In this document: piece after piece, positions 2,379 through 56,084 of the stretch
How the letters are laid out: each line of letters starts with the position of its first letter
Numbering within the stretch: the first letter of the stretch is position 1
Source: Candidatus Babelota bacterium
GTDB taxonomy: Bacteria; Babelota; Babeliae; Babelales; JAUPTZ01
DNA length: 64,000 bases
Assembly (NCBI GenBank): GCA_030917815.1
Contig: JAUPTZ010000013.1
Coordinates: 3,109 to 67,108 of the forward strand
Direction of reading: 5' to 3'
Position numbers and translations under genes: made by a program
The notes under the pieces: model-generated
Told to the model about the DNA's origin: nothing
Databases searched by the model: none
Seen by the model: the letters and a program-made list of their open reading frames with translations, nothing else

Positions 2379-2537
2379 CTTTGCGCTCGCCACCGCGGCC
2401 TTTGATCAGCCCTGAGAAGCTTGTGAGCGAGGCGCAGTCGGTCCGCCGTCGCCCTTACGGGCTATGGCGCGACATCCTCCTTCGCCTTATCCTAACTTGC
2501 CGGACGTAAGTCGCGACGAAGCCTTGGCGAAGTCGGA
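2379..2537. repeat. GC-rich repeat-family segment abutting the CCA end of tRNA-Tyr
   Basis: Contains the family words gtccgccgtcgcc, catcctccttcgcc and (reverse strand) tccgacttcgccaaggcttcgtcgcg, matching cccgacttcgcatagcttcgtcgcgg at 13708. Confidence 0.65.
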
Positions 2538-9352: not shown

Positions 9353-9395
9353 GGGTTTAAACAAAAGTGAGACAACAAAAATCCCCAACACAGAA

Positions 9396-9720
9396 GCATT
9401 TGCTTCGCTGGCTGCGCCTTCTCGCAAAGACTGCCGAATAGGGCAGCTATCAGCCACGCAAAGCTCGCTGATAGCAATAATACACATTATGAAGCGTCCC
9501 GACTTCGTTAAAACTTCGTCGCGGCACGCCTTAGCACCGAATGTGCGGTGGTGGCACTGCGAGGTTTTAACCGTGGCAGTGCCTGTGCCGGATGCCCGGC
9601 GGCAAAACAAGCGTCAGTCCGCTGCGACGCGGACGCATTCTGAGAAACGAGCAGCTCCTGCGAGTGCCGAAGAAAAAAAATTGCACAGCGGTTTATCGCC
9701 TTACGTCAGACCCCCCTAAC
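9396..9720. repeat. Composite of GC-rich repeat-family modules
   Basis: 9498-9557 is about 80 percent identical to 13708-13766. 9596-9671 parallels 49026-49102, including an identical 18-mer cgagcagctcctgcgagt. Also contains ctcgcaaagac. Confidence 0.75.
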
Positions 9721-9764
9721 GTAAAGCACCACTGTGCAATAATATATATCTTGTAAGAAAAGCA

Positions 9765-9842
9765 CCAGGCCCTTCTGAGGGGCCTGTCCGCCGTAGCTCT
9801 GCCCGCTGTAGCCTTTGGCATAAGCGGAAGAGCGTTGGAGGA
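9765..9842. repeat. Repeat-family unit directly after the rpsI stop
   Basis: aggccc-ttctgag-gggcct hairpin, then gtccgccgtagc...gttggagga. This is the same word pair as 30131-30186. Confidence 0.6.
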
Positions 9843-10241
9843 TTAGCGCTTAACGAATTGGAATTTCTTACGCGCTGCTTTTTGTCCGTATTTCTTACGT
9901 TCTTTTACGCGAGAATCAACGGTAAGCAAGCTGTTGGCACGAAGAACCAAACGCAAATTTTCATCAACGGTCAACAAAGCACGCGCAATACCAAGCTTGA
10001 TAGCATCAGATTGACCGGTACGACCGCCGCCTTGAACGTTTGCCACGATGTCGTAACTCTTGTTATGGCCGGTCACATTTAACGGAGCCAACAAGCCTTG
10101 ACGGGTTGCATCGGTATCAAAATATTGTGCATAGTCACGGCCATTGACCACGATGGATCCACTGCCGCTTTTAAGCCACACGCGAGCTGTCGCACTTTTT
10201 CGACGACCAATCCCGTGATGCATTGTGCTACTTTGTTTCAT
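9843..10241 (-). CDS. rpsI: 30S ribosomal protein S9
   Basis: GIGRRKSATARV and the C-terminal DSRVKERKKYGQKAARKKFQFVKR are S9 hallmarks. Confidence 0.95.
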   Translation of the reverse strand: MKQSSTMHHGIGRRKSATARVWLKSGSGSIVVNGRDYAQYFDTDATRQGLLAPLNVTGHNKSYDIVANVQGGGRTGQSDAIKLGIARALLTVDENLRLVLRANSLLTVDSRVKERKKYGQKAARKKFQFVKR

Positions 10242-29610: not shown

Positions 29611-29911
29611 ACGAAAAGCAGAGCTTCAAGAAATCCTTTCAGGGGCGAATCAGATAGTTTCAGACACGCAAGTTAAAGATTCGGGCGACGAAGCACTTAC
29701 CGCTTCAATGGATAACCTCCAAAGCTCGCTCACGCAGTCTGAAGTAGAAGAACTTAATCAAATTAATGCAGCTCTTTCGCGCATCGAACACACCGAATAC
29801 GGTTTATGTATTGATTGTGGCGAAGCTATTGCAGAAAAGCGTCTCGAACATTCACCGTTCTCGGCTCGCTGCATCGTGTGCCAAGAAGAACTGGAACAAT
29901 CACATCGATAA
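29561..29911 (+). CDS. DksA/TraR-family C4 zinc-finger protein
   Basis: Coiled-coil N-terminal part, then CIDCGEAIAEKRLEHSPFSARCIVC (CxxC-17-CxxC). GTG start at 29561 with AAGGAGG 6 nt upstream. Overlaps the tadA 3-prime end by 50 nt. Confidence 0.8.
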   Translation: MSNNAAFTSKMKENLLKRKAELQEILSGANQIVSDTQVKDSGDEALTASMDNLQSSLTQSEVEELNQINAALSRIEHTEYGLCIDCGEAIAEKRLEHSPFSARCIVCQEELEQSHR

Positions 29912-29987
29912 ACAATCCAAGAACTAGCGCTTGATGCTTGCAGCAAAGAAGAGTTTCCTTTAGAATACCGGCCTTCTTCCTTATAAT

Positions 29988-30062
<75 letters not shown>

Positions 30063-30392
30063 GCCTTCGCCGAGGCTACGGCTGGCTGCGCCGCTACCAA
30101 TATAGGCGCAAGACAGACGGAGTAGCGAAGGCTGTCCGCCGTAGTGCACTTAAGCTCCATCGGAGTGAAAGTGTACGTAGGAGGACTGGCTGCCATCCTC
30201 ATAAAATCTTATCTAAAAACGCTATTGCTTACTCTCCTACCAACACCCTATTCATGCACAGTTCACCCTCAGGCTACGGCTGGCTGCGCCGCTACCAATA
30301 TAGGCGCAAGACAGACGGAGTAGCGAAGGCTGTCCGCCGTAGTGCGCCAAAGCTCCACCGAAGCGGAGGTGTACGTAGGAGGACTGGTTGCC
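30063..30392. repeat. Two tandem copies (period 198 bp) of a hairpin-repeat unit starting right after the tRNA-Thr CCA
   Basis: 30073-30147 is identical to 30271-30345 (75 nt), and gtgtacgtaggaggactgg recurs in both. The first copy is closed by agccttcgc/gcgaaggct. Confidence 0.85.
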
Positions 30393-30522
30393 GCCGCAAT
30401 CAAATCCCACAAAAAAACCTCAATTTACTCTTGCCATCACTCTATCAATTCATGCATATTTCTCGTTCATTCAACCGACAGGCATACATACAATACGGCT
30501 CTCTAAGGGAGCTCGTACTCAT

Positions 30523-30765
30523 ATGTTTTACGTCTATTTAATCAGATCAATTAATTTCCCTGAACTCACGTATATCGGCTTCACTCTCAATCTTAATACA
30601 CGCGTCACAGCACATAACAATGGCGAAGCCATTCATACTTCAAAGTACAAACCGTGGAAACTTGAAATGTATTGTGCATTCATTGATGAAGTAAAAGCAA
30701 AAGCATTCGAGAGATACTTGAAATCTGGCTCAGGAAGAGCGTTTGCAAAAAAACACTTATGGTAA
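30523..30765 (+). CDS. Small stand-alone GIY-YIG nuclease-domain protein
   Basis: 80 aa: MFYVYLIRS...TYIGFTLNLNTRVTAHN...KAFERYLKSGSGRAF (GIY...YIG, R, E pattern). The ATG at 30523 is preceded by AAGGGA. The upstream part of the track ORF covers repeat DNA. Confidence 0.75.
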   Translation: MFYVYLIRSINFPELTYIGFTLNLNTRVTAHNNGEAIHTSKYKPWKLEMYCAFIDEVKAKAFERYLKSGSGRAFAKKHLW

Positions 30766-30789
30766 AAGCCTCGCGGATGCCCCTACCCA

Positions 30790-31005
30790 CTAATACAGAG
30801 CCGCTATTCCACTCAGCATTCCCAAAGCCATCAATGCCCACATCAATCGCCACCACAATAGTGATGCTCCCCTAGCTTTGCCACTAATGTGACAAACTAC
30901 AAAGACTCCAACAAAACATACGAAGCTAAAAACAAGAAAAGCCGTAGAGTACGGGCCAGCGTAGCAACCGGCAGGACGAAAAATCGGTATAAAATACATT
31001 GCCAA
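30790..31005 (-). CDS. Small two-TM membrane protein
   Basis: 71 aa with two hydrophobic helices. Starts 2 nt after the preceding gene's stop. Confidence 0.45.
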   Translation of the reverse strand: MAMYFIPIFRPAGCYAGPYSTAFLVFSFVCFVGVFVVCHISGKARGASLLWWRLMWALMALGMLSGIAALY

Positions 31006-33470: not shown

Positions 33471-34829
33471 ATGATCGCGCTTATTACCGCATTTATCCTC
33501 TATACGCTCATCCTTATTGGTATTGGCGCTTATGGCTACAAAAAAACCTTGGCCTCTGGTGATTTTGGCACCGGCAACCGCACCATGAACTACTGGATCA
33601 CCGCACTATCAGCCCTTGCTGCCGACATGGGCGTTTATCTCTTTTTTGGCTTGCCTGGCGCTGTCTATCTCTCAAGCACCGAATGTTGGACCGTTTTCGG
33701 CCTCGTCGGCGGGATGTGGGCAACCTGGCATTTCATTGCACCAAAACTCCGTACTCGAAGCGAAGAAAGCAACAGCAGCACCCTTACTCATTTCCTGTGC
33801 ACAACGGCCGGGGATACTCACGGGTACCTCACGATCGTTAGCTCAACATTACTTACCTTCTTCTTTATCTTTTACATTGCGGCCGCTTTTAGCGGTATTG
33901 GCAACATTATTGCCTACACCTTTGGGTCACCCTACTGGATTGGCGTCGTTGCAAGCGCCTGCATGGTTACCTTTTATATATCGGTTGGCGGCTATCTTAC
34001 CGTTGCGCTAGCCGACGCTTTTCAAGGTGTTTTTCTCCTCTCAATGGTAGTCATCGTCCCCCTTATTACCGCATGGAACTTAGCAAAAACCGGTGTTTTC
34101 TCAGGGCCGACTGACTACACTGCATTCACGCCGACAACGATCGGTATTGGCGCCGGTATAGCGGCTGCGGTCAATTGGGGTCTTGGCTACCTTGGTATGC
34201 CACATATTCTTACTAAATTTATGGGAATCGACTCGGTTAAGAACATGAAAAAAGCCCAGTACCTTGGGCTCTCTTTTCAAGCCATTGCGCTGAGTTCCTC
34301 GGCCATTATCGGCCTCCTCGCTCGCTCCTACTTCCACACCCCACCTGCATCGGCCGAAACTCTTTTTTTACATATGGTTATGGAGCAATGCGCGCCCCTG
34401 CTAGCCGGTTTCATTCTCTGCGCAGTTATGGCGGCCGCAATCTCATCGCTTGATGCACAACTTATTGTCTGCGCATCGGTTATTGCCCGAGATCTCTTTA
34501 AGGCAAAAAATGCTCATCAAGAAAAAATCATCACCCGCCTCAGCACGATGGCCATCGCAGCCATTGGGGTCTGCATTGCGCTCACAAACACAAGTACCAT
34601 GTATGCCATGGTCCGCTATGCCTGGTCAGGACTTGGCAGTACCTTTGGCCCACTCGTTGTCATGAGCCTTTATGCACCACAACAACTCACCACCCGAAGC
34701 GCACTGGCCGGCATATTAGTTGGTGGCCTCACTGCCGCCCTTTGGCCTTATTACGGACCATTTTTAGCAACGGCACCGCTTATTCCTGGCTTTTGTAGCG
34801 GCCTCTTTGTTATGTACGCCTTACCCTAG
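33471..34829 (+). CDS. Sodium:solute symporter family (SSF) transporter
   Basis: 452 aa with about 12-13 TM segments. The N-terminal pattern (YLILIGIGAYGYKKT..DF..GNR.M) is typical of PutP/PanF-like SSF proteins. The substrate cannot be called. Confidence 0.75.
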   Translation: MIALITAFILYTLILIGIGAYGYKKTLASGDFGTGNRTMNYWITALSALAADMGVYLFFGLPGAVYLSSTECWTVFGLVGGMWATWHFIAPKLRTRSEESNSSTLTHFLCTTAGDTHGYLTIVSSTLLTFFFIFYIAAAFSGIGNIIAYTFGSPYWIGVVASACMVTFYISVGGYLTVALADAFQGVFLLSMVVIVPLITAWNLAKTGVFSGPTDYTAFTPTTIGIGAGIAAAVNWGLGYLGMPHILTKFMGIDSVKNMKKAQYLGLSFQAIALSSSAIIGLLARSYFHTPPASAETLFLHMVMEQCAPLLAGFILCAVMAAAISSLDAQLIVCASVIARDLFKAKNAHQEKIITRLSTMAIAAIGVCIALTNTSTMYAMVRYAWSGLGSTFGPLVVMSLYAPQQLTTRSALAGILVGGLTAALWPYYGPFLATAPLIPGFCSGLFVMYALP

Positions 34830-36871
34830 TCGCTGTCTACTTTGTTCTTTCGGTACTGAGCGTATTTGTAGAGACCGGCCACTGCAAGCGCACCAGCAGT
34901 AGCAAGACCTGCATAGGCAAAGCCTTGGCCAACTTTTTGTGCGGTGCTCATGCCACCAGCTGCTTTATATGGCGTAAGTCCCCAAAAGGCATGCGCCTTA
35001 TCGGTAAAGCTTTTCTTAACATTGGCAGGAAGCACCCCAACTTCCGCATCATTGGCAATGGCAATCCCGGTTATCGGTGCGCGGCTAATAAATCCCGCAG
35101 TCGGGCTATCACGATCAAGAGATACCGGCACCACAATACCGTCCGGGGATGAACACCAATATTGAAACGGAGAATACGAGAATTGAGACTCTCGCGCATC
35201 CTTACCCCACCAATCATAATACGGTGGTGGATTAACTACAAAGCCACTTGGTATCAATAAAACCCCATCGTACGAAACCGCATGGTCAGCAGTTAAGAAT
35301 TTAACCTGAATCATCGCCCCTACATCACTAGGATTAGCCCACGTTGTTTTAAAATTCTTTATGCTTGTATCAATACCATCTTCAAGTACCGCACTCATTT
35401 CTTTTCCAAGCGCATAAAATGCCGACTCGGCTAAAACCATGGCATTCAACGGAAAAATTTGTACCTCCTCCCTTGCAAGTACCGTTACCTTATTAAGTGG
35501 ACGCATATAAAAAGCACATTGACCGCCAAAGAACTTCGCACTCGCCGCTATAACAAACCCACTTGCGTCGTACGAAAGCTGCAACTGCTGGTAAAGATCT
35601 TGCCGATCTTTATCAATCTTCTTCTGTTTATTTTGATCAGAATCGGAAACACCCACAAGTGCGAGATACGAAGATCGAAGGCTTTCTTGCTTATCTGCGG
35701 TAACCGGATACGCAAGCCCATCAACATATATCTGCCCTGATGGATTTAGTGCTGGATCAAAAAAAGCACCCCCTTGTATAGAAATTGAGGTCGCATCGGC
35801 CGAAAGTGCAAGACCAGCTGTCGTATTTTTCCACGCCGAAAACGCTGGCACAGTAGCGGTCACCGGACTGGTCAATGACAGCGCGATGAAGGTGGTATCG
35901 GTCGGCGTTGCACCACTAACTGCAAGATAATAATCGGCCAATTTCATACCAAAAGAGGTTGGCACGAATATCCGATGTGGCTGTGGTATTATGCCTGAAG
36001 AACTAGCGCTTATGCCATCATGCGACAGTTTATTAAGCCAATATTGCTTTACCGTAATCGGTGCCATGAGAGGATTCATTACTTGATAGATCATGCTTTG
36101 CGGGAGATTATAGGTAGTTGTTCCTATAGTTACCGCTACGGTCGCAGCGGTCGCTGTCGCAACGCTTACGGCAGCCAAAGTATTAGAAATCGTATACGAA
36201 CCAACCACCGGCTGAGGACTGACGTACCCATTTGCTCGAGCACCAATAATAGGGGCATTTTCCGGATTCGAGATATCAAATGCGAGACGCTTACACGGAT
36301 CCATAAGAATATCACAATCGAACGACGAGATCGGATAAGGCTTTGGCACATTCCCTGCCCCGATTGCCACCGCATCATATGCAATAGAGGTCTCATTACC
36401 GCCGGTTGCAAAAGCCTGCAATGCAACAGCCCCCGACGGATATTTTACGCAGACCAAATAATTATCACCATGAATCCACATTCGCGTACGACCATCGGTG
36501 GCAAGCCCAACCCCACTTACATCTACCCAGCGACTCCCATCAAATACCACCGCCAAATAGACCGTTGTCATAACTTGCTTGCCGCTAATCAGTTGTGGTG
36601 TACCATCAGCGTTGTACCAGGCAACCTCTGCCGCATAGTAATACGGCGCAACAAAAATAGGGCTTCCCCCGGGCGGAGAGAGCACTGCTTTACGAAGCGT
36701 GAATAGTGAAAGTTCACCAACCTGATAGATCGGCGCACTCTTACCAGGAGCGAGCTGTGGGGTAATGGCAATCTTCCTCTCTACAAAATCATCAGCAGAA
36801 AGCCACCCACCACCGGAAACAATACAGAGAACTAGAAAACTTTTAAGAACTTTATGTCGCACAGAATACAT
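34826..36871 (-). CDS. Large signal-peptide protein with C-terminal TM anchor, paralog 1
   Basis: 681 aa. N-terminal hydrophobic signal, then C-terminal GFAYAGLATAGALAVAGLYKYAQYRKNK. Roughly three quarters identical to the next gene. Confidence 0.75.
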   Translation of the reverse strand: MYSVRHKVLKSFLVLCIVSGGGWLSADDFVERKIAITPQLAPGKSAPIYQVGELSLFTLRKAVLSPPGGSPIFVAPYYYAAEVAWYNADGTPQLISGKQVMTTVYLAVVFDGSRWVDVSGVGLATDGRTRMWIHGDNYLVCVKYPSGAVALQAFATGGNETSIAYDAVAIGAGNVPKPYPISSFDCDILMDPCKRLAFDISNPENAPIIGARANGYVSPQPVVGSYTISNTLAAVSVATATAATVAVTIGTTTYNLPQSMIYQVMNPLMAPITVKQYWLNKLSHDGISASSSGIIPQPHRIFVPTSFGMKLADYYLAVSGATPTDTTFIALSLTSPVTATVPAFSAWKNTTAGLALSADATSISIQGGAFFDPALNPSGQIYVDGLAYPVTADKQESLRSSYLALVGVSDSDQNKQKKIDKDRQDLYQQLQLSYDASGFVIAASAKFFGGQCAFYMRPLNKVTVLAREEVQIFPLNAMVLAESAFYALGKEMSAVLEDGIDTSIKNFKTTWANPSDVGAMIQVKFLTADHAVSYDGVLLIPSGFVVNPPPYYDWWGKDARESQFSYSPFQYWCSSPDGIVVPVSLDRDSPTAGFISRAPITGIAIANDAEVGVLPANVKKSFTDKAHAFWGLTPYKAAGGMSTAQKVGQGFAYAGLATAGALAVAGLYKYAQYRKNKVDSD

Positions 36872-36928
36872 TGCATTGACCTTTCAAATATCAGGGTAAT
36901 TTTCTCGAAGCGTACTAGTAGGCATACC

Positions 36929-39022
36929 CTAATATCCGTCTGCTTTTCGTTGTCGATACTGGGCGTATTTGTAGAAAGCAGTCAACGCAAGCGCACCGCC
37001 GGCAGCAATACCTGCATAGGCAAAGCCTTGGCCAACTTTTTGTGCGGTGCTCATACCCGCTGCTGCTTTAGTTTCTTCTTTATACGGAGTCAATCCCCAA
37101 AAGTCATGCGCCTTATCGGTAAAATTTTTCTTGAGATCGGCAGAAAGCGCAGTGACTTCCGCATCATCAGCAATAGCAAGACCGGTTATCGTCGACCCGC
37201 TAAAATCAGCAGACAACTGCGACACAACGCCACCCGATGGCGAATACCAGCATTGAAGACATAACGGCGCCATATCATAACGATAATATGGTACCGGATT
37301 AGCTACAAAGCCACCTCTCGTCACTAAAATTCCATCGTACGACACCGCAGCATCGGCGGTCAAAAATTTAACTTGGATCATCGCACCTACTTTACTTGCG
37401 TCGGCCCAGACTTTTTTAAGATTTTTTGCGCTCGTATCGATACCGTCCTCAAGTACCGCATTCATTCCTTTGCCAAGCGCATAAAATGCCGACTCGGCTA
37501 GAGCTACCGCATTCAACGGATTTTGTAGTACCTGATCCCTTGCAAGTACCGTTACCTTATTAAGTGGGCGCATATAAAAACCACATTGACCGGTAAAAAA
37601 TTGTGCACTTGCTGCTATAACAAACCCACTAGCATCGTATGTAAGCTGCAACTGCTGGTAAAGGTCTTGACGATCTTTATCAATCTTTTTCTGTTTATCC
37701 GGATCAGAATCTGAAACACCCACTAGTGCGAGATACGAAGATCGAAGGCTTTCTTGCTTGTCTACGGTAACGGGATAGGCAAACCCATCAACATACATCT
37801 GCCCTGATGGCCTTAATGTCGGATCAAAAAAAGCGCCTCCCTGTATCGAGATTGAGGTCGCATCGGCTGAAAGCGCAAGCCCAGATGCAGTGTTTTTCCA
37901 CGCTGAAAAAGCTGGCACGGTAGCGGTCATCGGACTGGTCAGTGATAACGCGATAAAAGTAGTATCGGCAGGCGTTGCACCACTAACCGCAAGATAATAA
38001 TCGGCTAACTTCATATCAAAAGCAGTGGGGACACACGCCTTAAATGGCTGTGGAGTTACGACGGGGGAACTAGCGGGCAAGGTACCTGCCGAAGAAACAG
38101 CACTTATGCCACCATGCGATAACGTATTAAGCCAATATTGCTCTACTGTAAGCGGCGTTGCTGCCACTGGAGTTTTCGACCCGGCAGCCGGTGTAGCGGC
38201 TATCGACGTTGTGAGAGGATTCATTACTTGATAGATCATGCTTTGCGGAAGATTATAAGTAGTTGTTCCTATAGTTACCGCTACAGTAGCAGCGGTCGCT
38301 GTCGCAACGCTTACTGCAGCCAAAGTATTGGAAATAGTATACGAACCAATCACCGGCTGAGGACCGGCGTACCCATTTGCTTGAGTTTCAATAATAGTGC
38401 GACCGCACGATCCATCAGTATTAAAAAACGTAGCCGGCAGTGTAAGGACATCAAGATCTAACGAAGAAATCGTATAAGGCTTCGGCACATTTGCTGTACC
38501 AATTGCTACGGCATCATATGCAATAGAGGTCTCATCACCACCGGTTGCAAAAGCCCGCAATGAAACAACCCCTGAGGCACTCTTTGAGCAAACCACATAG
38601 TTATCACTATGGGTCCACGTCCGCGTAACACCATCGGGTGCAAAGCCAACCCCACTCACATCTTTCCAGGTGCGTAGAGACGTATCATACATCAACGCCA
38701 AATAGACCGTTGTCGTAACCTGCTTACCACTAATAAGTTTTGGTGTACCACCAGTGTTGTACCAGGTCACCTCTGCCGCATAGTAATACGGCGCAACAAA
38801 TATAGGACTCCCCCCGGCCGGAGAGAGCACCGCTTTACGAAGCGTAAATAGTGAAAGTTCTCCAATACTCAGCTGCGTCATCTTACCGGGAGCGGCCGGT
38901 AGCTGCGGTACCGACACCGAAATTTTCCTCTCCACAAAGTCATCGGCAGAAAGCCAACCACCACCAAAAACAATACCGAAAAATAGAAAACTTTTGAGGA
39001 GCTTATGTCGCACACAATACAT
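36929..39022 (-). CDS. Large signal-peptide protein with C-terminal TM anchor, paralog 2
   Basis: 697 aa with the same architecture. The leader sequence (tttgaaaggtc.atgc.ATGta) is shared with paralog 1. Confidence 0.75.
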   Translation of the reverse strand: MYCVRHKLLKSFLFFGIVFGGGWLSADDFVERKISVSVPQLPAAPGKMTQLSIGELSLFTLRKAVLSPAGGSPIFVAPYYYAAEVTWYNTGGTPKLISGKQVTTTVYLALMYDTSLRTWKDVSGVGFAPDGVTRTWTHSDNYVVCSKSASGVVSLRAFATGGDETSIAYDAVAIGTANVPKPYTISSLDLDVLTLPATFFNTDGSCGRTIIETQANGYAGPQPVIGSYTISNTLAAVSVATATAATVAVTIGTTTYNLPQSMIYQVMNPLTTSIAATPAAGSKTPVAATPLTVEQYWLNTLSHGGISAVSSAGTLPASSPVVTPQPFKACVPTAFDMKLADYYLAVSGATPADTTFIALSLTSPMTATVPAFSAWKNTASGLALSADATSISIQGGAFFDPTLRPSGQMYVDGFAYPVTVDKQESLRSSYLALVGVSDSDPDKQKKIDKDRQDLYQQLQLTYDASGFVIAASAQFFTGQCGFYMRPLNKVTVLARDQVLQNPLNAVALAESAFYALGKGMNAVLEDGIDTSAKNLKKVWADASKVGAMIQVKFLTADAAVSYDGILVTRGGFVANPVPYYRYDMAPLCLQCWYSPSGGVVSQLSADFSGSTITGLAIADDAEVTALSADLKKNFTDKAHDFWGLTPYKEETKAAAGMSTAQKVGQGFAYAGIAAGGALALTAFYKYAQYRQRKADGY

Positions 39023-39153
39023 CGCATGGACCTTTCAAACATCGGGGAAACTTTTACCTATAGATCTCAATTATTTACTAAAGCGCTACCGTTAAATACA
39101 ACAAAATAGATACTCTTCAGCAGAGCACGTTCGACAGAGAAATCAATATAAAG

Positions 39154-45213: not shown

Positions 45214-46002
45214 CTAAAAGGTGAATGCTGCGTCAGGAGATTCTGCACGATCAAGCAGCCCAGGCTCAGGCAATGCGCCAAGCACCTCCTGAAGTAACGG
45301 ACCATACACCGCTTTAACTTTTCCAGCGAAAGTGCCCTTTTTTCTGGCATACGCCTCATACTCTCCTCTAAATTCCTCAGCAAAAGCTTTAAACTTCAAC
45401 TCTTCCCCAGACTTCCAAGATGCCGCAACACATGCAGAGTATAACGCCGGCAAATGCTTCGCCTGCGAAAAACGGTTAATCAGGCCCTGATACGCGATGC
45501 AATGTTCCGATAGAACCATATATACATCTTGGCAGAGTTGAAGCGCGCTTTTAAGAAACTCCACCATCTCATCTAACGTACAATCAAAACGCTTAGCAGA
45601 CCGAGGATCCAAGATATATATCATACAAGTTTCATCGATGAGCCGCATTAAATGCCCGCCATATTCAGCATGCCCCACAGAGCTGTCATAAAGACAGCCG
45701 CTCAAGTAATCGCTTAATTCTTCGCGGCCTCTCTCTGTTTCTTTTGCATAGAGTTGTTGCGGCGCCGCAACCAATGCAGCGAGATGCTGCATCTGCTTTG
45801 TTGTAAAATCGCGTCCACGTTTTGCTACCGCTGCCATTACTTTATCAACACGCTTCCTGAGTACCTTTTTTCGTGAAGACATCTTTTTTGTCTCTCCTGC
45901 AGATGAAGATACAACCGGAGAAATTGGCTCACTCGATGCACTGGCCAACACAGTGCCCCCAACACTAACCATAATCAACGCACTTACTATTATTTTGTAC
46001 AC
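45214..46002 (-). CDS. Secreted hypothetical protein (T5)
   Basis: GTG start at 46002 with AAGGGA 7 nt upstream. Signal-like YKIIVSALIMVSVGGTVLASA. Confidence 0.6.
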   Translation of the reverse strand: MYKIIVSALIMVSVGGTVLASASSEPISPVVSSSAGETKKMSSRKKVLRKRVDKVMAAVAKRGRDFTTKQMQHLAALVAAPQQLYAKETERGREELSDYLSGCLYDSSVGHAEYGGHLMRLIDETCMIYILDPRSAKRFDCTLDEMVEFLKSALQLCQDVYMVLSEHCIAYQGLINRFSQAKHLPALYSACVAASWKSGEELKFKAFAEEFRGEYEAYARKKGTFAGKVKAVYGPLLQEVLGALPEPGLLDRAESPDAAFTF

Positions 46003-46090: not shown

Positions 46091-46840
46091 TTAAACTTTT
46101 TTCGGCACTTCTGCCAAAAGACCATTAATATAGACTATCGCTTGCATAACTCTTTCAGTAAGCAAAGTAGTCAGCTTGGTAAACTCGTTCGTTAGCCGCA
46201 TCCCGGTACGTTGGCATTCATCATACTGCAACACCATACAGGCTTGAAACTCTCTTTTATACGCACGGGCGATACCAAGAAGCTTGGTCAAGGCACTGCT
46301 CTTGCTACACCTTCCCGCAGTACGGTAAGCGCTGTCGCTTTGCCTATATTCCCACTCTAAATCCAGAACCAGTTGCCATCGCTCGCGAAGAGTAAGCACC
46401 TCTGTAAGCATAGCGAGAACATCATGTTCATCTACGCCGCAGCGAGCTACTACTAATCTAGTAATGACTTTAATTAATGCAGCACGCTTCTCATCGTCCT
46501 CTGGAAAGTACACACAGAGACCAGTAAGACACCGCACGACTGCCAAAAGCTCTTCATCTTTAAAGCGTAAATCGGCCACTGCTCGCATAAATCCATACTG
46601 CTCAAACTGCATGAATACACCTTCAGCCACTTCACTCAAGTTTGTAGCCGCTTGTGGTTCAGCTACATGCCTAGCCACTACCGTCATGTCGGCCAGAAGC
46701 TTTGAGTAATCGACTTCCTTAGTAAAGACCGTTAACGATGGAGTGAGTTCCCCTGAGACGGATGAAGGAGAGTCAGCCGCGCTCAATCCATGAGCTAGGG
46801 CACACGAACATGCCAGTATCATCAGTATTTTTCTATGCAT
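46091..46840 (-). CDS. Secreted hypothetical protein (T6)
   Basis: MHRKILMILACSCALAHGLSA signal peptide with a helical body. Confidence 0.6.
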   Translation of the reverse strand: MHRKILMILACSCALAHGLSAADSPSSVSGELTPSLTVFTKEVDYSKLLADMTVVARHVAEPQAATNLSEVAEGVFMQFEQYGFMRAVADLRFKDEELLAVVRCLTGLCVYFPEDDEKRAALIKVITRLVVARCGVDEHDVLAMLTEVLTLRERWQLVLDLEWEYRQSDSAYRTAGRCSKSSALTKLLGIARAYKREFQACMVLQYDECQRTGMRLTNEFTKLTTLLTERVMQAIVYINGLLAEVPKKV

Positions 46841-46916: not shown

Positions 46917-48398
46917 TCACATATAGAAAGAAAAAAGAATGATTTGAACAATAACCCATACCACATCACCGGCTAAAACGCCGGACCAAAACAATGTGCT
47001 TTTCGCCACCCGACGCGTTATCGCACGAATGCCCGCACCGCAGGCAAGTGCAATAATCAAACCATTGGGCATAATAAGACCACCAAATACCATCGCTGCG
47101 TTAATACCTAAGCGATCAAGAAGAAAACCCAGCGCAATACCAAGAAGGACAATCGTCGTATTAAATTGAAAAGTGTTCATCAATAATGCCCGTGAGATTC
47201 CCCGATGCGCAATCAATGGAGAGACACCAAGCGTGAAATGGGTACATAATAGCCAGATAAGGACTCCAATACTCATCGCAGTAATAGCGACTCCATAGTA
47301 TTGTGCACGACGTAACGTTGGCTCATCAATGCCACACTGCTGAGCAATTTTGTAGGAAAACAAACTATCAACAAGCACTCCGCCCGCAATACCAATCAAC
47401 GTACAGGCAATAACCACCGAAACACCCGACACCCCCGGAATACACATCAACGGAATCATAGCAATCGTCATGTAACGACCATAGGTGGCAAGGCCAGTAT
47501 GCGCCGCAAGATCACCTAAATGCCGCAGCAACGGCACTAAAATAATCGCAAAAAAACAAACCCCGGCCAGAGACATATTAAAGTAGTAACAGAGACCGGC
47601 CACCAGCACTCCACTCCACAAATCGGTTTTTCTCAATACCGCCAGAGTTGTTGCTCTTAAAGAAACTATAGAACGCATCGGATGATAGACAAACGGCTTT
47701 ATAAAACTACTCACTAAGAGGCCACTACACAACGCAAACGTCACATCAAGCGTTGAAAGCGCTGGATAGCATTGCCCCAGTGGCGCCACCACCACATATT
47801 TACCGGCCATTCCCACCAACATAGGCATTACAATACTTGTGCCGGCCAGAAACCCGGCCGCCCAACAAACCGGTGACAGCCCAAGTGCCCAAAAATAGTT
47901 AGCGCACCCGGTTGCCATTGCGCACAAGATTCCGCCGCCAAAAATACCGGCTTCAAGTGGACCATAAGAACTTGCAATGGCGCTCGTAACGGCCGCACTT
48001 ACCGGAAACGGTGTCGCATCATGCAGCAATGCCGGCACCGCATGCTTTGCAATGCGGATGCCAAGAATGCCGGCCGATAATACCAGCACTGCCATGAGCG
48101 CGCAAAACCAAAGCGGTGCAGCCATCCAACTCGCCCACAGGGCTGGGTCAATAAAATAAAGCGTAGGAAGCGAGAATCCAATGCCGGTGGCAATAGCACC
48201 TCCAAACGAGGCGGTAATAGTTATCAGGGCAATAGTGCGACTTTCAAGTCGCTTAAAAGAGAATGATCCACCCAACCGCACCATCATGACAATCATTGGC
48301 CCAATCCAGGGCCCCAACCCGGTCGCTAACGAAACATACAATAAGATAGCAGCCGAAAAAACCGTCAACACTGCCGAAAAAATAAGCGTAGATAGCAT
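46917..48398 (-). CDS. Polytopic transporter-like membrane protein (possibly OPT-superfamily)
   Basis: 493 aa with about 14 hydrophobic segments. The N-terminal pattern resembles bacterial OPT proteins, but I cannot verify family membership. Confidence 0.45.
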   Translation of the reverse strand: MLSTLIFSAVLTVFSAAILLYVSLATGLGPWIGPMIVMMVRLGGSFSFKRLESRTIALITITASFGGAIATGIGFSLPTLYFIDPALWASWMAAPLWFCALMAVLVLSAGILGIRIAKHAVPALLHDATPFPVSAAVTSAIASSYGPLEAGIFGGGILCAMATGCANYFWALGLSPVCWAAGFLAGTSIVMPMLVGMAGKYVVVAPLGQCYPALSTLDVTFALCSGLLVSSFIKPFVYHPMRSIVSLRATTLAVLRKTDLWSGVLVAGLCYYFNMSLAGVCFFAIILVPLLRHLGDLAAHTGLATYGRYMTIAMIPLMCIPGVSGVSVVIACTLIGIAGGVLVDSLFSYKIAQQCGIDEPTLRRAQYYGVAITAMSIGVLIWLLCTHFTLGVSPLIAHRGISRALLMNTFQFNTTIVLLGIALGFLLDRLGINAAMVFGGLIMPNGLIIALACGAGIRAITRRVAKSTLFWSGVLAGDVVWVIVQIILFSFYM

Positions 48399-48479
48399 GC
48401 GAATGTTCCTTTAAAACCGGTAAAATGCTCTGTAGGCTACCATACCTAAAAAAAATTTACGCTGAAATGCATTTTTCTA

Positions 48480-48508
48480 AAGACAATCGTTTTTTTATTG
48501 ATTATAAT
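48480..48508 (+). promoter_or_regulatory. Sigma70-type promoter of the tRNA-Arg/Ser/Ser cluster
   Basis: AAGACA-17 nt-TATAAT, 21 nt upstream of the tRNA-Arg 5-prime end. Confidence 0.5.
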
Positions 48509-48529
48509 CACACCTCGTTTTGAAATTTT

Positions 48530-48606
48530 GCGCCCATAGCTCAATTGGATAGAGTACCAGACTACGAATCTGGCGGTTATAGGTTCGACTCCTATTGGGC
48601 GCACCA
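48530..48606 (+). tRNA. tRNA-Arg (anticodon ACG)
   Basis: Acceptor GCGCCCA/TGGGCGC, anticodon stem CCAGA/TCTGG with loop CTACGAA, T-loop TTCGACT, encoded CCA. Confidence 0.9.
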
Positions 48607-48750
48607 ATTTACGCCAACGCGCCTGTGCCAAAGGCTCGGCACGTTGAGGCTTCAGCAGGCTACGCCGTTAAAGGCGCTCGCTGCTTGCCCGAAGATGTCT
48701 TTGAAAAACATTGAATTGTTGTTACACATGCGGTATAACGCATGTGTTGC
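48607..48750. repeat. Hairpin-rich spacer, probably related to the repeat family
   Basis: Hairpins gtgcc-aaaggctc-ggcac, agcag..cgcc-gttaaa-ggcg..ctgct and acacatgcg-gtataa-cgcatgtgt. Contains the family word acattgaattg (also at 13820 and, on the reverse strand, at 28848). Confidence 0.5.
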
Positions 48751-48842
48751 GGAGAGGTGGCTGAGTGGTCGAAAGCGCGCGCCTGCTAAGTGTGTATACT
48801 CGTAATTGGGTATCGAGGGTTCGAATCCCTCCCTCTCCACCA
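48751..48842 (+). tRNA. tRNA-Ser (anticodon GCT)
   Basis: Acceptor GGAGAGG/CCTCTCC, anticodon loop CTGCTAA, long variable arm, T-loop TTCGAAT, encoded CCA. Confidence 0.9.
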
Positions 48843-49102
48843 TCCTGCGCCGCTAAAGCGCAAGACAGATGGTGTCCGCCAAAGCTCCGATAGAGGAGCG
48901 CAGGAGGACCTGGCAGGTATCAGCTTCGCCATATGCTCGCTGATACCAAAAACAACCTCATCCATATATAGTACATTAAGCGACTGCGAGAGCATGCTCG
49001 TGGCAGACGCTGTGGCGGCACAGTCCGCCGGCAAAATTAACGTCAGCCGACACGTCGACGTCGGCACATCCCGCGGAGCGAGCAGCTCCTGCGAGTAACG
49101 AG
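48843..49102. repeat. Repeat-family composite filling the gap between the two tRNA-Ser genes
   Basis: The hairpin tcctgcgc...gcgcagga starts at the first base after CCA. gcgcaagacagatgg matches 30105-30119. 49026-49102 parallels 9596-9671. Confidence 0.8.
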
Positions 49103-49190
49103 GGAGAGATGGCAGAGCGGTTGAATGCGACGGTCTTGAAAACCGTTATGTTGAAAGGCATCGGGGGTTCGAATCCCTCTCTCTCCACCA
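49103..49190 (+). tRNA. tRNA-Ser (anticodon TGA)
   Basis: Acceptor GGAGAGA/TCTCTCC, anticodon loop CTTGAAA, long variable arm, T-loop TTCGAAT, encoded CCA. Confidence 0.9.
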
Positions 49191-49232
49191 TCCTGCGCCA
49201 CTAAAGCTCCGATAAAAAAGCGCAGGAGGACT
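49191..49232 (+). repeat. Short repeat-family hairpin directly after the tRNA-Ser(TGA) CCA
   Basis: tcctgcgc-cactaaagctccgataaaaaa-gcgcagga-ggac. The arms are the same as the hairpin at 48843-48905. Confidence 0.75.
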
Positions 49233-49354
49233 TCACTCTCTGTTCGCCAAAACCAAGATGAAACAATTCAATAAATCATATAAGCTATGTTTTGTAACAA
49301 TGAGTAATCGCAAAGGTCTACCTAAGCGATTGCTTACCAATCCTGGAGAACGAC

Positions 49355-50281
49355 ATGAAGCTTAATCGCGAACAACGTTCAACACTTTTTATTATATGTA
49401 TTTTCCTCGGTGGTACCGCACTCAACCTCTGTGCAAGCGATGAGCTTTGGCATAGAAATTTTAGCGCCGAAGGATTACTCACAGCGGCTGCGAGAAGAAA
49501 ATCAACTGCCATCGCTATCAAAGCGCCCCTCCCTCCTGTTGTCGACTGCTGCCCTTTAGGAACGGTGCAGGTATGCGACGCTGCCAGAATCAATGCCCTG
49601 ATAGCTGAGCGCTACGCCATGTCCAGCCGCACATTTGGCAAGAAATATGGGACATACAGAGCCAAAATATTCATCGGCGAAAAAGTAAGCCGTTCGTTTT
49701 TTGAAGGCACAAAGCGCTATCTCAGTTTTGATTCTTTTGTAAAGCAAGTGCTCGGGGTCTGTGGCCCCACCTGCTCACCGGAACAGCGCTTTAGTCCATT
49801 ACGCACCATCATAAACAATAATGGCATAGATACCGTGTATCTCCCAATCGTAGTCGACGCTTCAGGTAAAACGAGCCTAGACACAACCGCTCATTGCATC
49901 CTTGTCGAGACAAAATTTGATAGCACGCTGCAACGGATGCCAGCATCAACCAAAGAATTATGCGACGGATTATTCAACCAATCAATCAAAAAAATCCTCA
50001 GCTCTGTCATAGAAAAGTTAAACAGGGCAATACGTAGTGACAGCAGTGCAGAACAAACCGATTGCGCACAACATGCCATCGGACAATTTACGCTTTTTGC
50101 GCAAGCACTCGCCTGCGCTAACGTACTCCACGCAGCCACCGTTGTTGATACCAACGGTGCGGTGCATCTTTACCTGCTCACCAACCACGGACAAGCACCA
50201 CTTAAGGATAGCTCGGTCGATGCAGTAACAGCTGAACTATGCGGCCGCCTACCGGGACTTGGTCTATCATCTAAGAAATAA
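49355..50281 (+). CDS. Secreted protein, LYLP/HLYLL family member S1
   Basis: Signal-like STLFIICIFLGGTALNLCA. Motifs TVYLPIVVD and NGAVHLYLLTNHG are shared with S2 and S3. Confidence 0.7.
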   Translation: MKLNREQRSTLFIICIFLGGTALNLCASDELWHRNFSAEGLLTAAARRKSTAIAIKAPLPPVVDCCPLGTVQVCDAARINALIAERYAMSSRTFGKKYGTYRAKIFIGEKVSRSFFEGTKRYLSFDSFVKQVLGVCGPTCSPEQRFSPLRTIINNNGIDTVYLPIVVDASGKTSLDTTAHCILVETKFDSTLQRMPASTKELCDGLFNQSIKKILSSVIEKLNRAIRSDSSAEQTDCAQHAIGQFTLFAQALACANVLHAATVVDTNGAVHLYLLTNHGQAPLKDSSVDAVTAELCGRLPGLGLSSKK

Positions 50282-53881: not shown

Positions 53882-55186
53882 TTAAGCGGTTGCTTTTGGT
53901 CTATAGAAAAAAACATAGGCCGCTCGTATCCAGTCATTAACTGCCGAAGAGTTAGACCCACCCATCAGAGGCCCCTCAATCATCGGCACGAGCACCCCGG
54001 TACGCGTATGCACCGTATCGAGCGCCTCTTGTATTATAGCCTGGCGCTTTTTGCGCTCTTCATCAAGCTCAACCCCAAAACCCCCTGCTATAGCTGAAAA
54101 AACAATGCGATGGTGACGTGAGTTATGCATAAGACCGGCTAAATTCTCGATTTGCCTATGTATCTTAAGAAGCAGCTGCTGGCCCGCATCACCGGTAGGA
54201 TCTGTATCAAGATGCTGCACGATACTCTGCTGACACGCAGAGAGCTCTTGTAGTGCATCGACAAAAGCGGCATCAGATGCAATAGCGGTATAATGCTCAA
54301 TCCATTCAGCGAGTTGATTATCCCCAGAAGGCAGCGAATTCTCCGGCAACGCTGCGTAGGCAACCTGTGCTTTTTGCATCCACGCAGACATTTCAGGAGT
54401 TGGCGTTACGGGTACTATCGAAAATTTACTACCCACCAGAGCAGAAACAGGCTCATGAACCGCCGCCGCCAACTCCAAAAACGTCTTATTCATCTCTTGC
54501 GCCTTACGGGCCAATCCGGTAAATATGGCCGTAATCTCACTACGCTCAGCTTCTGTCTTCTTGTTCATATAGGTAGATAAATACTGAGTATTCGCATTCG
54601 CCTTCACTACCCAGTCCATAGCAAACTGACCGGTCGGATCTTGCGCAAGATTATCTTGCAACTCAGATAATGCCGCATAATGATCCCTCATATAGGCCGC
54701 ATACTCCTTATCTTTATAGAGAACGGTAAAGTACTCTATAAGCTGTTTCAATTCCTCATCATTAAGAATTTGGGCTACTTGTGTGTCTTTAAATGCATCT
54801 ATCATGGAATAGACCTCAGTTATATCGATTATCGTTTGCCAATCAACCGACTTCTGCTCCTCGCATTTAACAATGGCAACATCCAATGCCTCACTTGCGC
54901 TCAACATCGCCTGTGCTTTTTTGCGCAGCAAGGTTGCTTGAACACGTAAATGAGCCACGGTAGAGATCTCTTTTCCTAAAATTTCTTTGATCTGAACAAG
55001 TTCAAATCCTAAAAACTTTAACGCCAAGATCTGCTGCAACCGTTGTAAGTCGGCCTCAGAGTACAAGCGATAGCCATTATCCAATCGTATACTCGGCTTG
55101 AGTAAATTAATCTCATCATAATGATGCAGCGTGCGCACCGAAATGCGCATTAATTTACTCAGCTTTCGTACTAACCATTGTGCCAT
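53882..55186 (-). CDS. TipA/Mta-like MerR-family regulator with duplicated C-terminal effector domain
   Basis: The HTH SVRTLHHYDEINLLKPSIRLDNGYRLYSEADLQRLQQILALKFLGF is typical of the TipAL/Mta subgroup. The C-terminal half contains two related segments (LQDNLAQDPTGQFAMDW and VQHLDTDPTGDAGQQLL). Confidence 0.8.
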   Translation of the reverse strand: MAQWLVRKLSKLMRISVRTLHHYDEINLLKPSIRLDNGYRLYSEADLQRLQQILALKFLGFELVQIKEILGKEISTVAHLRVQATLLRKKAQAMLSASEALDVAIVKCEEQKSVDWQTIIDITEVYSMIDAFKDTQVAQILNDEELKQLIEYFTVLYKDKEYAAYMRDHYAALSELQDNLAQDPTGQFAMDWVVKANANTQYLSTYMNKKTEAERSEITAIFTGLARKAQEMNKTFLELAAAVHEPVSALVGSKFSIVPVTPTPEMSAWMQKAQVAYAALPENSLPSGDNQLAEWIEHYTAIASDAAFVDALQELSACQQSIVQHLDTDPTGDAGQQLLLKIHRQIENLAGLMHNSRHHRIVFSAIAGGFGVELDEERKKRQAIIQEALDTVHTRTGVLVPMIEGPLMGGSNSSAVNDWIRAAYVFFYRPKATA

Positions 55187-55241: not shown

Positions 55242-56084
55242 CTATTTTGCCGCTTCATAAGCTGCCAGTATCCAGTGCATCATTTCAACGGTCATGTCGG
55301 GTCCCAGCTGAACCTTCACGCCAGAGCGCTGCACCGCAAGCCGTATTGCTTTTGATATAAGCTCTACAATGTCCTGTTGCTGCTGCTTGCTCCGCTTTGC
55401 AAAACCGGCGTAAAGCAATGTACCGATAACCTCTTGTGCCTTTTCTCTATGCACTGAGGGTATGCTACCCATGAGAGTACCATACGCCCGCCAACGCATG
55501 CCCCACTCTTTGCCAATTGAGCTGTGAGGATCAACCCCATCGGCCATAAGCACTTTAAGCTCTTCAAGAAGCACCCGCTCCTCATGCATAAGGTCCAAGA
55601 ATTTTCGATCTCTGCTCAGGGCCGCATAATATTCAACCAAATCCCTTAGCTGAGATTCACTCAAAAAGTTCTCATACAGCTCTTTACGCAATGCATCTGC
55701 CATAGAATATACCTCGGTTATATGGACTACTATTTTCCAATCGACCGATTCCCGTTTCTCACAGCGAGCGATCGCACTCTCAAGCGCTTCACGAGCATGC
55801 AATAAAGCCTCTGCTTTTTGTAGCAAAAGATCTGATTGAAGTTGTAAATGGGCAAGCGATGATGATTCGGCCGCTAAAACTTTCTTAATTTGATCTAACC
55901 CAAATCCTAAAAACTTTAAGGCCAAAATCTGCTGTAGTCGTTGTAAATCGATCTCAGAGTAGAGGCGATAGCCATTATCCAGGCGTAAACTTGGCTTGAG
56001 TAAACCAATGCGATCATAATGATGCAATGTCCGCACCGAAATGCGCATAAGCTTACTCAGCTTGTGTATCAACCATTGGGCCAT
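55242..56084 (-). CDS. TipA/Mta-like MerR-family regulator (280 aa)
   Basis: The N-terminal 115 aa are about 75 percent identical to the neighbouring regulator. A single C-terminal effector-type domain carries LMADGVDPHSSIGKEWGMRW. Confidence 0.8.
   Translation of the reverse strand: MAQWLIHKLSKLMRISVRTLHHYDRIGLLKPSLRLDNGYRLYSEIDLQRLQQILALKFLGFGLDQIKKVLAAESSSLAHLQLQSDLLLQKAEALLHAREALESAIARCEKRESVDWKIVVHITEVYSMADALRKELYENFLSESQLRDLVEYYAALSRDRKFLDLMHEERVLLEELKVLMADGVDPHSSIGKEWGMRWRAYGTLMGSIPSVHREKAQEVIGTLLYAGFAKRSKQQQQDIVELISKAIRLAVQRSGVKVQLGPDMTVEMMHWILAAYEAAK

Follow-up and report, generated by a model that had tools for sequence, protein, structure and literature searches.

Hairpins behind two serine tRNA genes of a Candidatus Babelota bacterium: probable gene-less members of a leader family linked to tRNA and tmRNA CCA ends and a GIY-YIG nuclease gene

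In a 64,000-nucleotide stretch of DNA from a Candidatus Babelota bacterium (GenBank assembly GCA_030917815.1, contig JAUPTZ010000013.1, positions 3,109 to 67,108 of the forward strand; hereafter the window), ARAGORN and Rfam identify nine tRNA genes, all of which have an encoded CCA. Two of them are serine tRNA genes that are each followed, from the first base after CCA, by a hairpin-forming trailer. Our analysis indicates that these hairpins very probably belong to a family of leaders linked to tRNA and transfer-messenger RNA (tmRNA) genes and to a small GIY-YIG nuclease gene, and that they are gene-less miniature members of that family. The serine locus is laid out below, where R1 denotes a covariance model of two leader parts, the segment S3 and the hairpin HP2, which was built from 29 metagenome sequences and no window sequence and was run with filters off.

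48751-48842, plus strand: tRNA-Ser(GCT) gene, CCA encoded (ARAGORN, Rfam tRNA)
48843-48909, plus strand: trailer module of tRNA-Ser(GCT), from the sequence; fold z-score -3.2 to -3.7; R1 match at 48865-48911 (26.3 bits, E = 2e-4)
48910-49102, plus strand: remainder of the Ser-Ser spacer, GC-rich hairpins (blastn-short, minimum free energy fold, no R1 match), tentatively a family member
49103-49190, plus strand: tRNA-Ser(TGA) gene, CCA encoded (ARAGORN, Rfam tRNA)
49191-49231, plus strand: trailer of tRNA-Ser(TGA), minimal form, from the sequence and repeat D20; fold z-score -2.8 to -3.3

Both trailers begin with the same arm at +1 after CCA, as the original prediction had described: TCCTGCGC lies at 48843-48850 and 49191-49198, its complement GCGCAGGA lies at 48898-48905 behind Ser(GCT) and at 49220-49227 behind Ser(TGA), and GGAC directly follows each complement. 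The arms enclose 21 nt in the Ser(TGA) trailer, the length given earlier, and 47 nt in the Ser(GCT) trailer, where 48 nt had been counted. The single long hairpin drawn earlier for Ser(GCT) is not the minimum-energy fold, which prefers two smaller ones, a small 5' hairpin and a GTCCGCC...GGAGGAC hairpin; with CCA added, a CCAUC:GAUGG pair forms as well. This module thus reads, in order, the S1-like arm TCCTGCGC, the small hairpin, the 15-mer gcgcaagacagatgg (48858-48872), and HP2 (GTCCGCC...GGAGGAC, 48874-48909), whose 3' arm GCGCAGGA is complementary to the S1-like arm. The Ser(TGA) trailer equals the Ser(GCT) trailer minus 26 nt between two AAAGC repeats, and it arose by a slippage-type deletion. 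The last 33 nt of the tRNA together with the first 18 nt of the trailer are 92% identical between the two genes (repeat D20). Compared to shuffled sequences, the folds of the Ser trailers have z-scores of -2.8 to -3.7.

A complete copy of the arrangement, the cassette, lies behind tRNA-Thr(CGT) in the same window:

29988-30062, plus strand: tRNA-Thr(CGT) gene, bearer of the complete cassette (ARAGORN)
30063-30186, plus strand: full leader, copy 1; fold z-score -5.35; R1 matches in sense at 30125-30188 (32 bits) and in antisense at 30061-30091
30271-30384, plus strand: leader copy 2, without S1, part of a 198-nt tandem duplication (repeat D6); R1 match at 30323-30386 (32 bits)
30523-30765, plus strand: gene of an 80-amino-acid (aa) minimal GIY-YIG nuclease (MFYVYLIRS...KKHLW; Pfam PF01541, E = 1.7e-14)

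Leader copy 1 consists of S1 (GCCTTCGC) straight after CCA, S2 (GCTACGGCTGGC), S3 (GCGAAGGC), a T, and HP2 at 30134-30186. The motifs gcgcaagacagaYgg and gtccgcc, which had been noticed in both the Ser(GCT) and Thr(CGT) trailers, are indeed common to the two and lie at 30107-30121 and 30134-30140 of the latter. In an alignment with the Thr(CGT)-type leader, the Ser trailers are without S1-S2-S3, and CTGCGCCGCTA, GCGCAAGACAGAYGG, and GTCCGCC are common to both. The Ser pair TCCTGCGC/GCGCAGGA is one compensated pair away from TCCTTCGC/GCGAAGGA, and its first arm stands at +1, as S1 does in the family. The Ser(TGA) trailer, of which only S1 and the 3' arm are left, has no R1 match and is placed in the family solely because it is homologous to the Ser(GCT) trailer. 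Behind either Ser gene we found no open reading frame (ORF) and no trace of a GIY-YIG pseudogene; since the nuclease gene is absent there, the Ser copies are ORF-less derivatives. The Ser trailers are deletion derivatives of the cassette's non-coding leader. As a separate observation on the 198-nt leader duplication (30073-30220 and 30271-30418), short-read Logan contigs of the same organism break within it, and also within tRNA-Arg.

We searched genomes, one per species, for the hairpin pattern GTCCGCCGWAG-N(4-34)-GTAGGAGGA and obtained at least 120 stretches. Among the matches listed were Verrucomicrobiota and other groups of the Planctomycetes-Verrucomicrobia-Chlamydiae (PVC) assemblage, Bacteroidota, Patescibacteria, Alphaproteobacteria, Bdellovibrionota, and Dependentiae. 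Most listed matches are true hairpins with a covarying inner stem, and most are intergenic, in either orientation relative to neighboring genes. About 10 of those listed lie 33 to 190 nt behind a tRNA gene on the same strand, and in several of these the whole architecture of the Thr(CGT) trailer recurs, namely CCA followed by GCCTTCGCC.AGGCTTCGGCTGGC...GCGAAGGC-T-GTCCGCC...GGAGGAC. Its carriers are loci L011 (Sphingorhabdus), L056 (Victivallales), L078 (Dependentiae), and L096 and L103 (Alphaproteobacteria). A small ORF follows the hairpin in L056, L096, and L103, and a profile of these ORFs found the nuclease ORF of the window; the four proteins share 48 to 60% identity across phyla.

For a set unbiased by the hairpin, metagenome contigs were searched by the protein alone, and 80 loci were fetched out of 546 relatives. 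HP2 lies upstream on the strand of the gene in 73 of the 80, and the junction CCA|NNYT[TAG]CGC, the S1 signature, is present in at least 54. A tRNA gene precedes on the same strand in 40 of the 80, mostly 95 to 270 nt away, and many of the others are ended by contig edges. Where at least 350 nt of upstream sequence was available (n = 55), we found a tRNA gene in 38 loci, of more than 15 isoacceptor types, and a tmRNA gene in 7, ending where the leader starts. In other loci, the leader is immediately preceded by a 3' remnant that resembles a tRNA or tmRNA and has the ending ...CTCCACCA, and the genes farther upstream vary. This is most simply explained if the cassette was already in place when ordinary islands entered the tRNA or tmRNA gene on its upstream side. 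The S1 signature NNYT[TAG]CGC occurs at 61 of 117 tRNA 3' ends in the fetched DNA, against 0.74 expected. Many of these 61 have no nuclease gene behind them; therefore, gene-less trailers are common wherever the cassette occurs. The plan of the leader is constant: S1 (NNCTTCGC or NNCTACGC) after CCA, S2 (GCTTCG-NN-TGGC), a TGGC..GCCA hairpin, S3 (GCGAAG-NN), a T, and HP2, with 2 to about 290 nt from HP2 to the ATG and 15 nt or fewer in 27 of 73 loci. Carriers of the protein include Dependentiae, Patescibacteria, Alphaproteobacteria, Desulfuromonadales, Methylomirabilota, and the PVC group, among others. Altogether, the gene, the palindromic leader, and the CCA end are linked across many phyla.

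Several individual loci deserve description. The cassette stands directly behind tmRNA in L148, L175, L177, L179, L183, and L202 and behind tmRNA 3' fragments ending in CCTCCACCA in L134, L139, and L180. L210 and L211 have an identical GIY-YIG protein and the same downstream catalase gene, differ in their upstream genes (P-type ATPase versus Fic), and carry a degenerate ...CTCCACCA tag before the leader, which suggests turnover of islands at the site. In L011 (Sphingorhabdus sp. EL138, approximately 6000-6160), an ORF-less leader follows tRNA-Ala(TGC) beside tRNA-Ile(GAT), probably inside the rRNA operon spacer of this cultured bacterium. Aestuariivirga and Breoghania sp. JC706 are further carriers in culture.

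The window protein is 100% identical to an NCBI entry named putative endonuclease [Candidatus Dependentiae bacterium], and judged by its sequence it is a nuclease of the prokaryotic Slx1-like/UPF0213 type. Its closest solved relatives are 1zg2 (UPF0213 BH0048; E = 1.7e-7), SLX1 chains (E = 4e-6 to 7e-4), and 1ywl (E = 2e-3). The catalytic Tyr, Tyr, Arg, and Glu are kept, and the invariant columns include Y5, Y17, R27, H31, and E63. Its subfamily, with the signature HN.G.S.HT.KY.PW...YLKSGSGRAFA.K, shows 55 to 68% identity across phyla. Most listed homologues are 79 to 81 aa long, a stand-alone minimal domain that comprises the catalytic domain alone, and the nuclease has no C-terminal DNA-binding module. 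Database labels are GIY-YIG nuclease family protein, putative endonuclease, and excinuclease ABC subunit C; searches of NCBIfam, PHROGs, and PADLOC gave no specific name, with one marginal match to a restriction enzyme among defence families. The window holds a single copy of the gene and no pseudogene remnants behind the other trailers. UPF0213 and SLX1 form a structure-specific endonuclease family, and its eukaryotic Slx1 members cut branched and hairpin DNA (PMC1564403).

HP2 follows the consensus Y-CC-N-CC-G(A/T)AG...CG(A/T)AGG-N-GG-R. Paired bases fill 92.8% of its alignment cells, 5 of its 11 pairs are changed on both sides (36 cells), and at no pair did we find a one-sided (G-U) change. 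To describe the upstream part of the leader, we used an alignment (A3) of 25 leaders from outside the window. Two helices were evident. P1, formed by S1 and S3 from +1 onward, is 94% paired and has five compensated pairs, with G-U and A-C mismatches about equally frequent (36 versus 38). HP1 joins C74-C75-A76 of the tRNA and the first S1 bases to GNN-TGG of S2 and is 96% paired; its CCA:TGG pairing holds in 25 of 25 leaders, and its covariation spans the junction between gene and trailer. Both helices use S1 and are thus mutually exclusive, and both covary. Furthermore, across the 80 loci an antisense R1 match regularly reaches into the tRNA, where it covers the final five bases. It follows that the leader consists of two HP2-like units in inverted arrangement, of which the left one enters the tRNA end. 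Three features give moderate evidence that selection or copying keeps up the palindromes as DNA, in single strands or cruciforms: G-U pairs are not in excess, solo copies occur in both orientations, and lineage variants are shared within a genome. A stricter scheme of three-way covariation, in which S1:S5 and S2:S4 form a REPIN-like long hairpin, was rejected, as it holds in some lineages only.

Besides the Ser and Thr(CGT) loci, the window contains the following related or candidate modules:

1700-1940, minus strand: trailer of tRNA-Thr(TGT) (sequence, fold, R1 matches)
2017-2261, minus strand: trailer of tRNA-Gly, with P1 (S1:S3) from +2 and HP2 at 2102-2070 (R1 match at 2068-2112)
2339-2537, minus strand: trailer of tRNA-Tyr (sequence, fold; R1 matches at 2511-2537 on the plus strand, antisense to the tRNA, and at 2439-2482 on the minus strand)
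9390-9845, both orientations: intergenic cluster of modules with no tRNA or other RNA gene (R1, sequence, shared 18-mer)
48607-48750, plus strand: trailer of tRNA-Arg(ACG), probably a degenerate relic (sequence; no R1 match, no HP2)

It had been proposed that most tRNAs of the window carry, from +1 after CCA, a trailer of one structured family, which tRNA-Trp and tRNA-Thr(GGT) lack, and our analysis bears this out. Related modules trail tRNA-Tyr, -Gly, -Thr(TGT), and -Thr(CGT) besides both Ser genes. R1 finds the Tyr, Gly, Thr(TGT), Thr(CGT) (twice), and Ser(GCT) trailers, all of which contain HP2, and 9 of its 10 best window matches fall within tRNA trailers. Moreover, in the Thr(CGT) trailer and in the Tyr trailer the stretch that adjoins CCA has an antisense R1 match. 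The motif GYRNAGGAGGRY occurs 6 times in the window against 0.19 expected, each time within a trailer and on the strand of the tRNA. By folding, CCA or CA can be drawn into a helix in all six window trailers. The Tyr trailer opens with an HP2-like unit in inverted orientation, the hairpin TCCGACTTCGCC...GGCGAAGGAGGA (2537-2474), and HP2 follows at 2482-2439; in the Thr(TGT) trailer, P1 (S1:S3; GCTTTCGC/GCGAAAGC) occupies 1940-1847, and there are two hairpins of the HP2 type, one at about 1854-1809 and one at about 1746-1706.

Two further parts of the earlier proposal held in part. The Arg trailer, then counted as a less clear member, keeps an S1-like start, ATTTACGCC, and has neither HP2 nor an R1 match; it begins ATTTACGCCAA, where the Dependentiae locus L078 has GCCTACGCCAAGG behind its tRNA-Arg(ACG). 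Outside the trailer, the Ser-Ser spacer had been described as built from family modules. One exact 18-mer at 49079-49096 recurs at 9648-9665 (blastn-short), in the intergenic cluster, and hints at such an origin, but R1 has zero matches across 48912-49102. The R1 matches of the cluster itself lie at 9495-9534 (minus), 9777-9845 (plus), and 9424-9446 (plus).

The units appear to have multiplied within genomes. The copies in one genome have lineage-specific variants in common, which are GGAGG with a G.A mismatch for the window and, in other lineages, GTC/GACGG, CCC/GGGGG, or GCC/GGCGG; this uniformity means that copies are homogenised or spread within genomes. One 16-kb contig carries two genes and two solo leaders, and one metagenome-assembled genome of Opitutales has about 10 copies of the exact-pattern hairpin. 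Leaders also occur in tandem arrays, of two in the window and of six in L171, where the six occupy 1986-2492, repeat every 93 nt, and separate tRNA-Ala(CGC) from the GIY-YIG gene. In L172 and L138, the start of a truncated GIY-YIG gene, ATGTAYTAYGTY, lies upstream of the gene and runs straight into a new S1, GTCTTCGC; the boundary of the tandem unit therefore falls at the shared GTCT. A look-up of identical proteins for recent transposition gave 8 places, in which the downstream context was always the same.

As to the nature of the element, we lean, with no great assurance, toward a selfish DNA element of the repetitive extragenic palindrome (REP)/REPIN or free-standing homing-endonuclease kind, tied to CCA ends and acting by a DNA-level mechanism. 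The complete cassette is laid out as the tRNA or tmRNA 3' end, an inverted pair of palindromic units of about 30 nt, and the 80-aa GIY-YIG gene last; the left unit starts right after CCA, with an outer helix that sets the CCA of the tRNA against the conserved TGG, and the right unit is HP2. Such an element would reside at CCA ends, ride on tRNA transcription, multiply within the genome, and decay into gene-less palindromes, both behind other tRNA genes and in ordinary DNA between genes. Expression by read-through is probable, because no promoter was detected in most spacers and the cassette lies 0 to 300 nt behind strongly transcribed RNA genes. Given its Slx1-family membership, the nuclease is proposed to act on the hairpins or cruciforms of its own units. 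It would cut this DNA, and through repair or gene conversion further tRNA 3' ends would then receive copies of the units, at times together with the gene. The hairpin would begin at +1 because this is the left boundary of the element, not because of termination or tRNA processing, and the internal TGG that pairs with the flanking CCA would recall the guide-target pairing of IS200/IS605. More speculatively, and with distinctly less confidence, the cassette might represent an unrecognised class of mobile element, in which an Slx1-like GIY-YIG nuclease acts on hairpin DNA, the TGG and a covarying triplet pair with CCA and set the point of insertion or cleavage, and the Ser hairpins are non-autonomous miniatures. 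Such an element would use a guide and a target much as IS200/IS605 or REP/RAYT do, but with a nuclease of another superfamily and with the most conserved 3-nt tag in biology as its target.

A number of observations weigh against a selfish DNA element. The protein is without a DNA-binding domain and its substrate is only predicted, and relatives fused to tRNA methyltransferases hint at an RNA role (PMC1564403). The fixed orientation to the tRNA, together with the CCA:TGG pairing, fits an RNA-level function equally well, and the closeness of HP2 to the ATG in the 27 loci noted above suggests translational control. Among the roughly 120 listed genome loci selected by the motif, the gene lies within 8 kb in only 3, so that solo hairpins may spread without it. 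No presence/absence polymorphism or empty site was seen; mobility is thus something we infer. We found no conserved motif after the stop codon and generally no flanking direct repeat, which leaves the right boundary undefined. Relatives of the gene are absent from 2.9 million viral contigs (IMG/VR), and no PHROG family contains them; carriage by phages was accordingly rejected.

The main rival places the function in the RNA, and we regard it as doubtful. It holds that the trailer is a co-transcribed cis element that switches between the CCA-sequestering HP1 and the CCA-freeing P1 and so directs or insulates 3' maturation, that HP2 controls the stability or translation of the nuclease mRNA by masking the ribosome binding site of a potentially toxic nuclease, and that the Ser trailers are processing hairpins in simplified form that persist because they benefit the tRNA. 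Every tRNA-linked copy does keep a fixed orientation and register relative to CCA, and the two exclusive helices on S1, both covarying, the CCA:UGG pairing in all 25 leaders, and the ease with which CCA or CA enters a helix in the six window trailers would suit such a switch. The purine-rich 3' arm of HP2 lies 2 to 15 nt before the ATG in the 27 of 73 loci, no promoter-like site separates the Arg, Ser, and Ser genes, and the leader is tolerated beside tRNA-Ala(TGC), probably in an rRNA operon spacer (L011). Yet G-U pairs are not enriched (HP2 has no one-sided changes, and P1 has about as many G-U as A-C mismatches), the same hairpin occurs between genes in both orientations far from tRNAs, and copy number, tandem arrays, and gene-less decay appear selfish; moreover, tRNA-Trp and tRNA-Thr(GGT) manage without a trailer, and most of the structure is lost in the Ser(TGA) version. 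A selfish DNA element and an RNA role do not exclude each other, because a selfish insert in a tRNA transcript must stay compatible with processing.

Less probable still are generic REP-like palindromes moved by another enzyme, such as a REP-associated tyrosine transposase (RAYT) or HUH transposase, that pile up at safe, highly transcribed tRNA sites with the GIY-YIG gene as a frequent co-tenant. The exact-pattern hairpins, at least 120 in many phyla and mostly with no GIY-YIG gene nearby, the GTAG/GAAG tetranucleotide on each arm, and the arrangement of units as inverted doublets, the last two being traits of REP/REPIN, would all be expected of these; the linkage in the loci selected by protein, 73 of 80 with HP2 and at least 54 with the CCA|S1 junction, is too tight for coincidence, and no transposase-like gene was noticed beside the modules, where no systematic RAYT search was made. 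In R2 elements, a 5' ribozyme cuts the element out of the host rRNA co-transcript, and the functional analogy raises the thought of a self-cleaving ribozyme, HDV-like or hatchet-like, that would cut at its own 5' end and release both the mature CCA and the downstream mRNA. P1 begins exactly at the junction and pseudoknot-like alternative pairings are present, but we consider this very unlikely: no ribozyme family matched even at E up to 10, on inspection the topology does not fit the P1-P2-P3-P1.1-P4 order of HDV, the smallest copies, Ser(TGA) among them, amount to a simple 8-bp hairpin, and solo copies act like DNA. We give hardly any credence to intrinsic terminators of the tRNA genes, for which the original prediction had left room and which GC-rich hairpins right downstream of RNA genes might suggest. 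None of the hairpins is followed by a T-run, there are 0 terminator-like sites in 48400-49400 and in 29900-30900, the sequence that comes next is GGACCTGG and GGACTTCAC, and more tRNAs or the nuclease gene lie on the same strand 100 to 260 nt downstream. Processing by RNase Z or RNase E, the other role suggested earlier, gained no support from the sequence analysis.

Other candidates were tried and set aside. AGGAGGA resembles a Shine-Dalgarno sequence, but it is one lineage variant, with GGCGG, GGGGG, and GACGG at the same place elsewhere; since other lineages vary there, the likeness is incidental. Rfam 15 has no family for the hairpin: among known RNA families, with ribozymes, rtT, and tmRNA-like RNAs included, none but tRNA reaches the gathering score, and matches down to E = 10 include no relevant one in the trailers. 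Mimicry of 5S loop E, sarcin-ricin, or k-turn motifs by the 3x3 G(A/U)A/G(U/A)A loop found no support as protein binding, and CGAAG on both arms explains the loop equally well. An integrase-type island was rejected as well: no integrase lies inside the 0.25- to 0.5-kb cassette, and in 51 of 54 loci we found no direct repeat of the tRNA 3' end beyond shuffled controls. The exceptions are L186, L188, where the repeat is the next tRNA gene, and L201, a 13-nt match. In one case, L186/L187, direct repeats of about 40 nt, similar to the 3' half of a tRNA, stand on either side of the cassette.

Compared to known systems, the cassette resembles REP/REPIN-RAYT in its short GC-rich imperfect palindromes with G(T/A)AG, in inverted doublets, in many intergenic copies that are alike within a genome, and in one small nuclease-type gene that adjoins the units. 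It differs in that its partner is a GIY-YIG (Slx1-like) and not an HUH/Y1 enzyme, the G(T/A)AG of each arm is part of an internal 3x3 loop and does not mark the hairpin's foot, the founding copy has a tRNA or tmRNA CCA end as its anchor, and the unit sequence is nearly identical across phyla. With IS200/IS605 it shares subterminal imperfect hairpins, insertion straight 3' of a short fixed target, and an internal TGG complementary to the flanking CCA, whereas the enzyme family is another one and neither a right-end hairpin nor a defined right boundary was found here; the analogy is one that the sequences suggest. GC-rich palindromes beside tRNA genes in an AT-richer genome are also known from the mitochondria of Neurospora crassa (PstI palindromes) and yeast (GC clusters). 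Fungal mitochondrial genomes with such palindromes carry GIY-YIG genes too, and the same ambiguity between processing signal and mobile element is long-standing there. Their sequences are unrelated and organellar, and to our knowledge fungal mitochondria have no fixed CCA junction (CCA is not encoded) and no dedicated adjoining gene for an 80-aa nuclease. Integrase-borne islands likewise target tRNA and tmRNA 3' ends, and some cassette loci have displaced 3' fragments ending in CCA; in contrast, the cassette is only 0.25 to 0.5 kb long, with no integrase and generally no att-type repeat.

Phage T4 SegB is a free-standing GIY-YIG homing endonuclease whose gene lies in a tRNA gene cluster (PMC2330249). 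The likeness is in a GIY-YIG gene between or behind tRNA genes and in a selfish look, patchy and in multiple copies. Unlike Seg and I-TevI, the cassette protein has 80 aa, no DNA-binding domain, and a place in the Slx1/UPF0213 branch (PMC1564403); the cassette is chromosomal in bacteria, absent from viral contigs, and equipped with a conserved palindromic leader, and homing is only what we infer. UPF0213 proteins (YhbQ, BH0048) have the same domain, size, and fold family, and the cassette subfamily differs from them by its tie to tRNA or tmRNA CCA ends and to the palindromic leader. Neither the full-text literature searched nor the 2006 phylogenomic survey of GIY-YIG proteins describes a tRNA link of this nuclease.

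Three observations concern other parts of the window. Two adjoining segments of about 2.1 kb at 34822-39054, with 79 to 92% identity (repeat families D1-D9), are probably tandem paralogous genes. A 211-nt direct repeat with 81% identity lies at 54976-55186 and 55874-56084, at a spacing of 898 nt. Proteins of 493, 249, and 262 aa are encoded at 46917-48398 (minus strand), 46091-46840, and 45214-46002; they have no Pfam match on record and occur only in short-read assemblies of one sample series (SRR240111xx).

If our reading is correct, the abundant 80-aa GIY-YIG nuclease family protein would gain a genomic niche, the tRNA or tmRNA CCA end, together with a conserved DNA or RNA partner structure. 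It would also explain the GC-rich structured tRNA trailers in this Dependentiae genome and elsewhere, the assembly breaks at these sites, and a cross-phylum hairpin that stands outside any RNA family. The trailers would matter for tRNA annotation and pre-tRNA 3' processing, because a helix that swallows CCA must be resolved before maturation. Finally, the family would offer a test case for whether palindromes that flank tRNA genes are processing signals or selfish DNA, and a tiny structure-specific nuclease with a predictable substrate.

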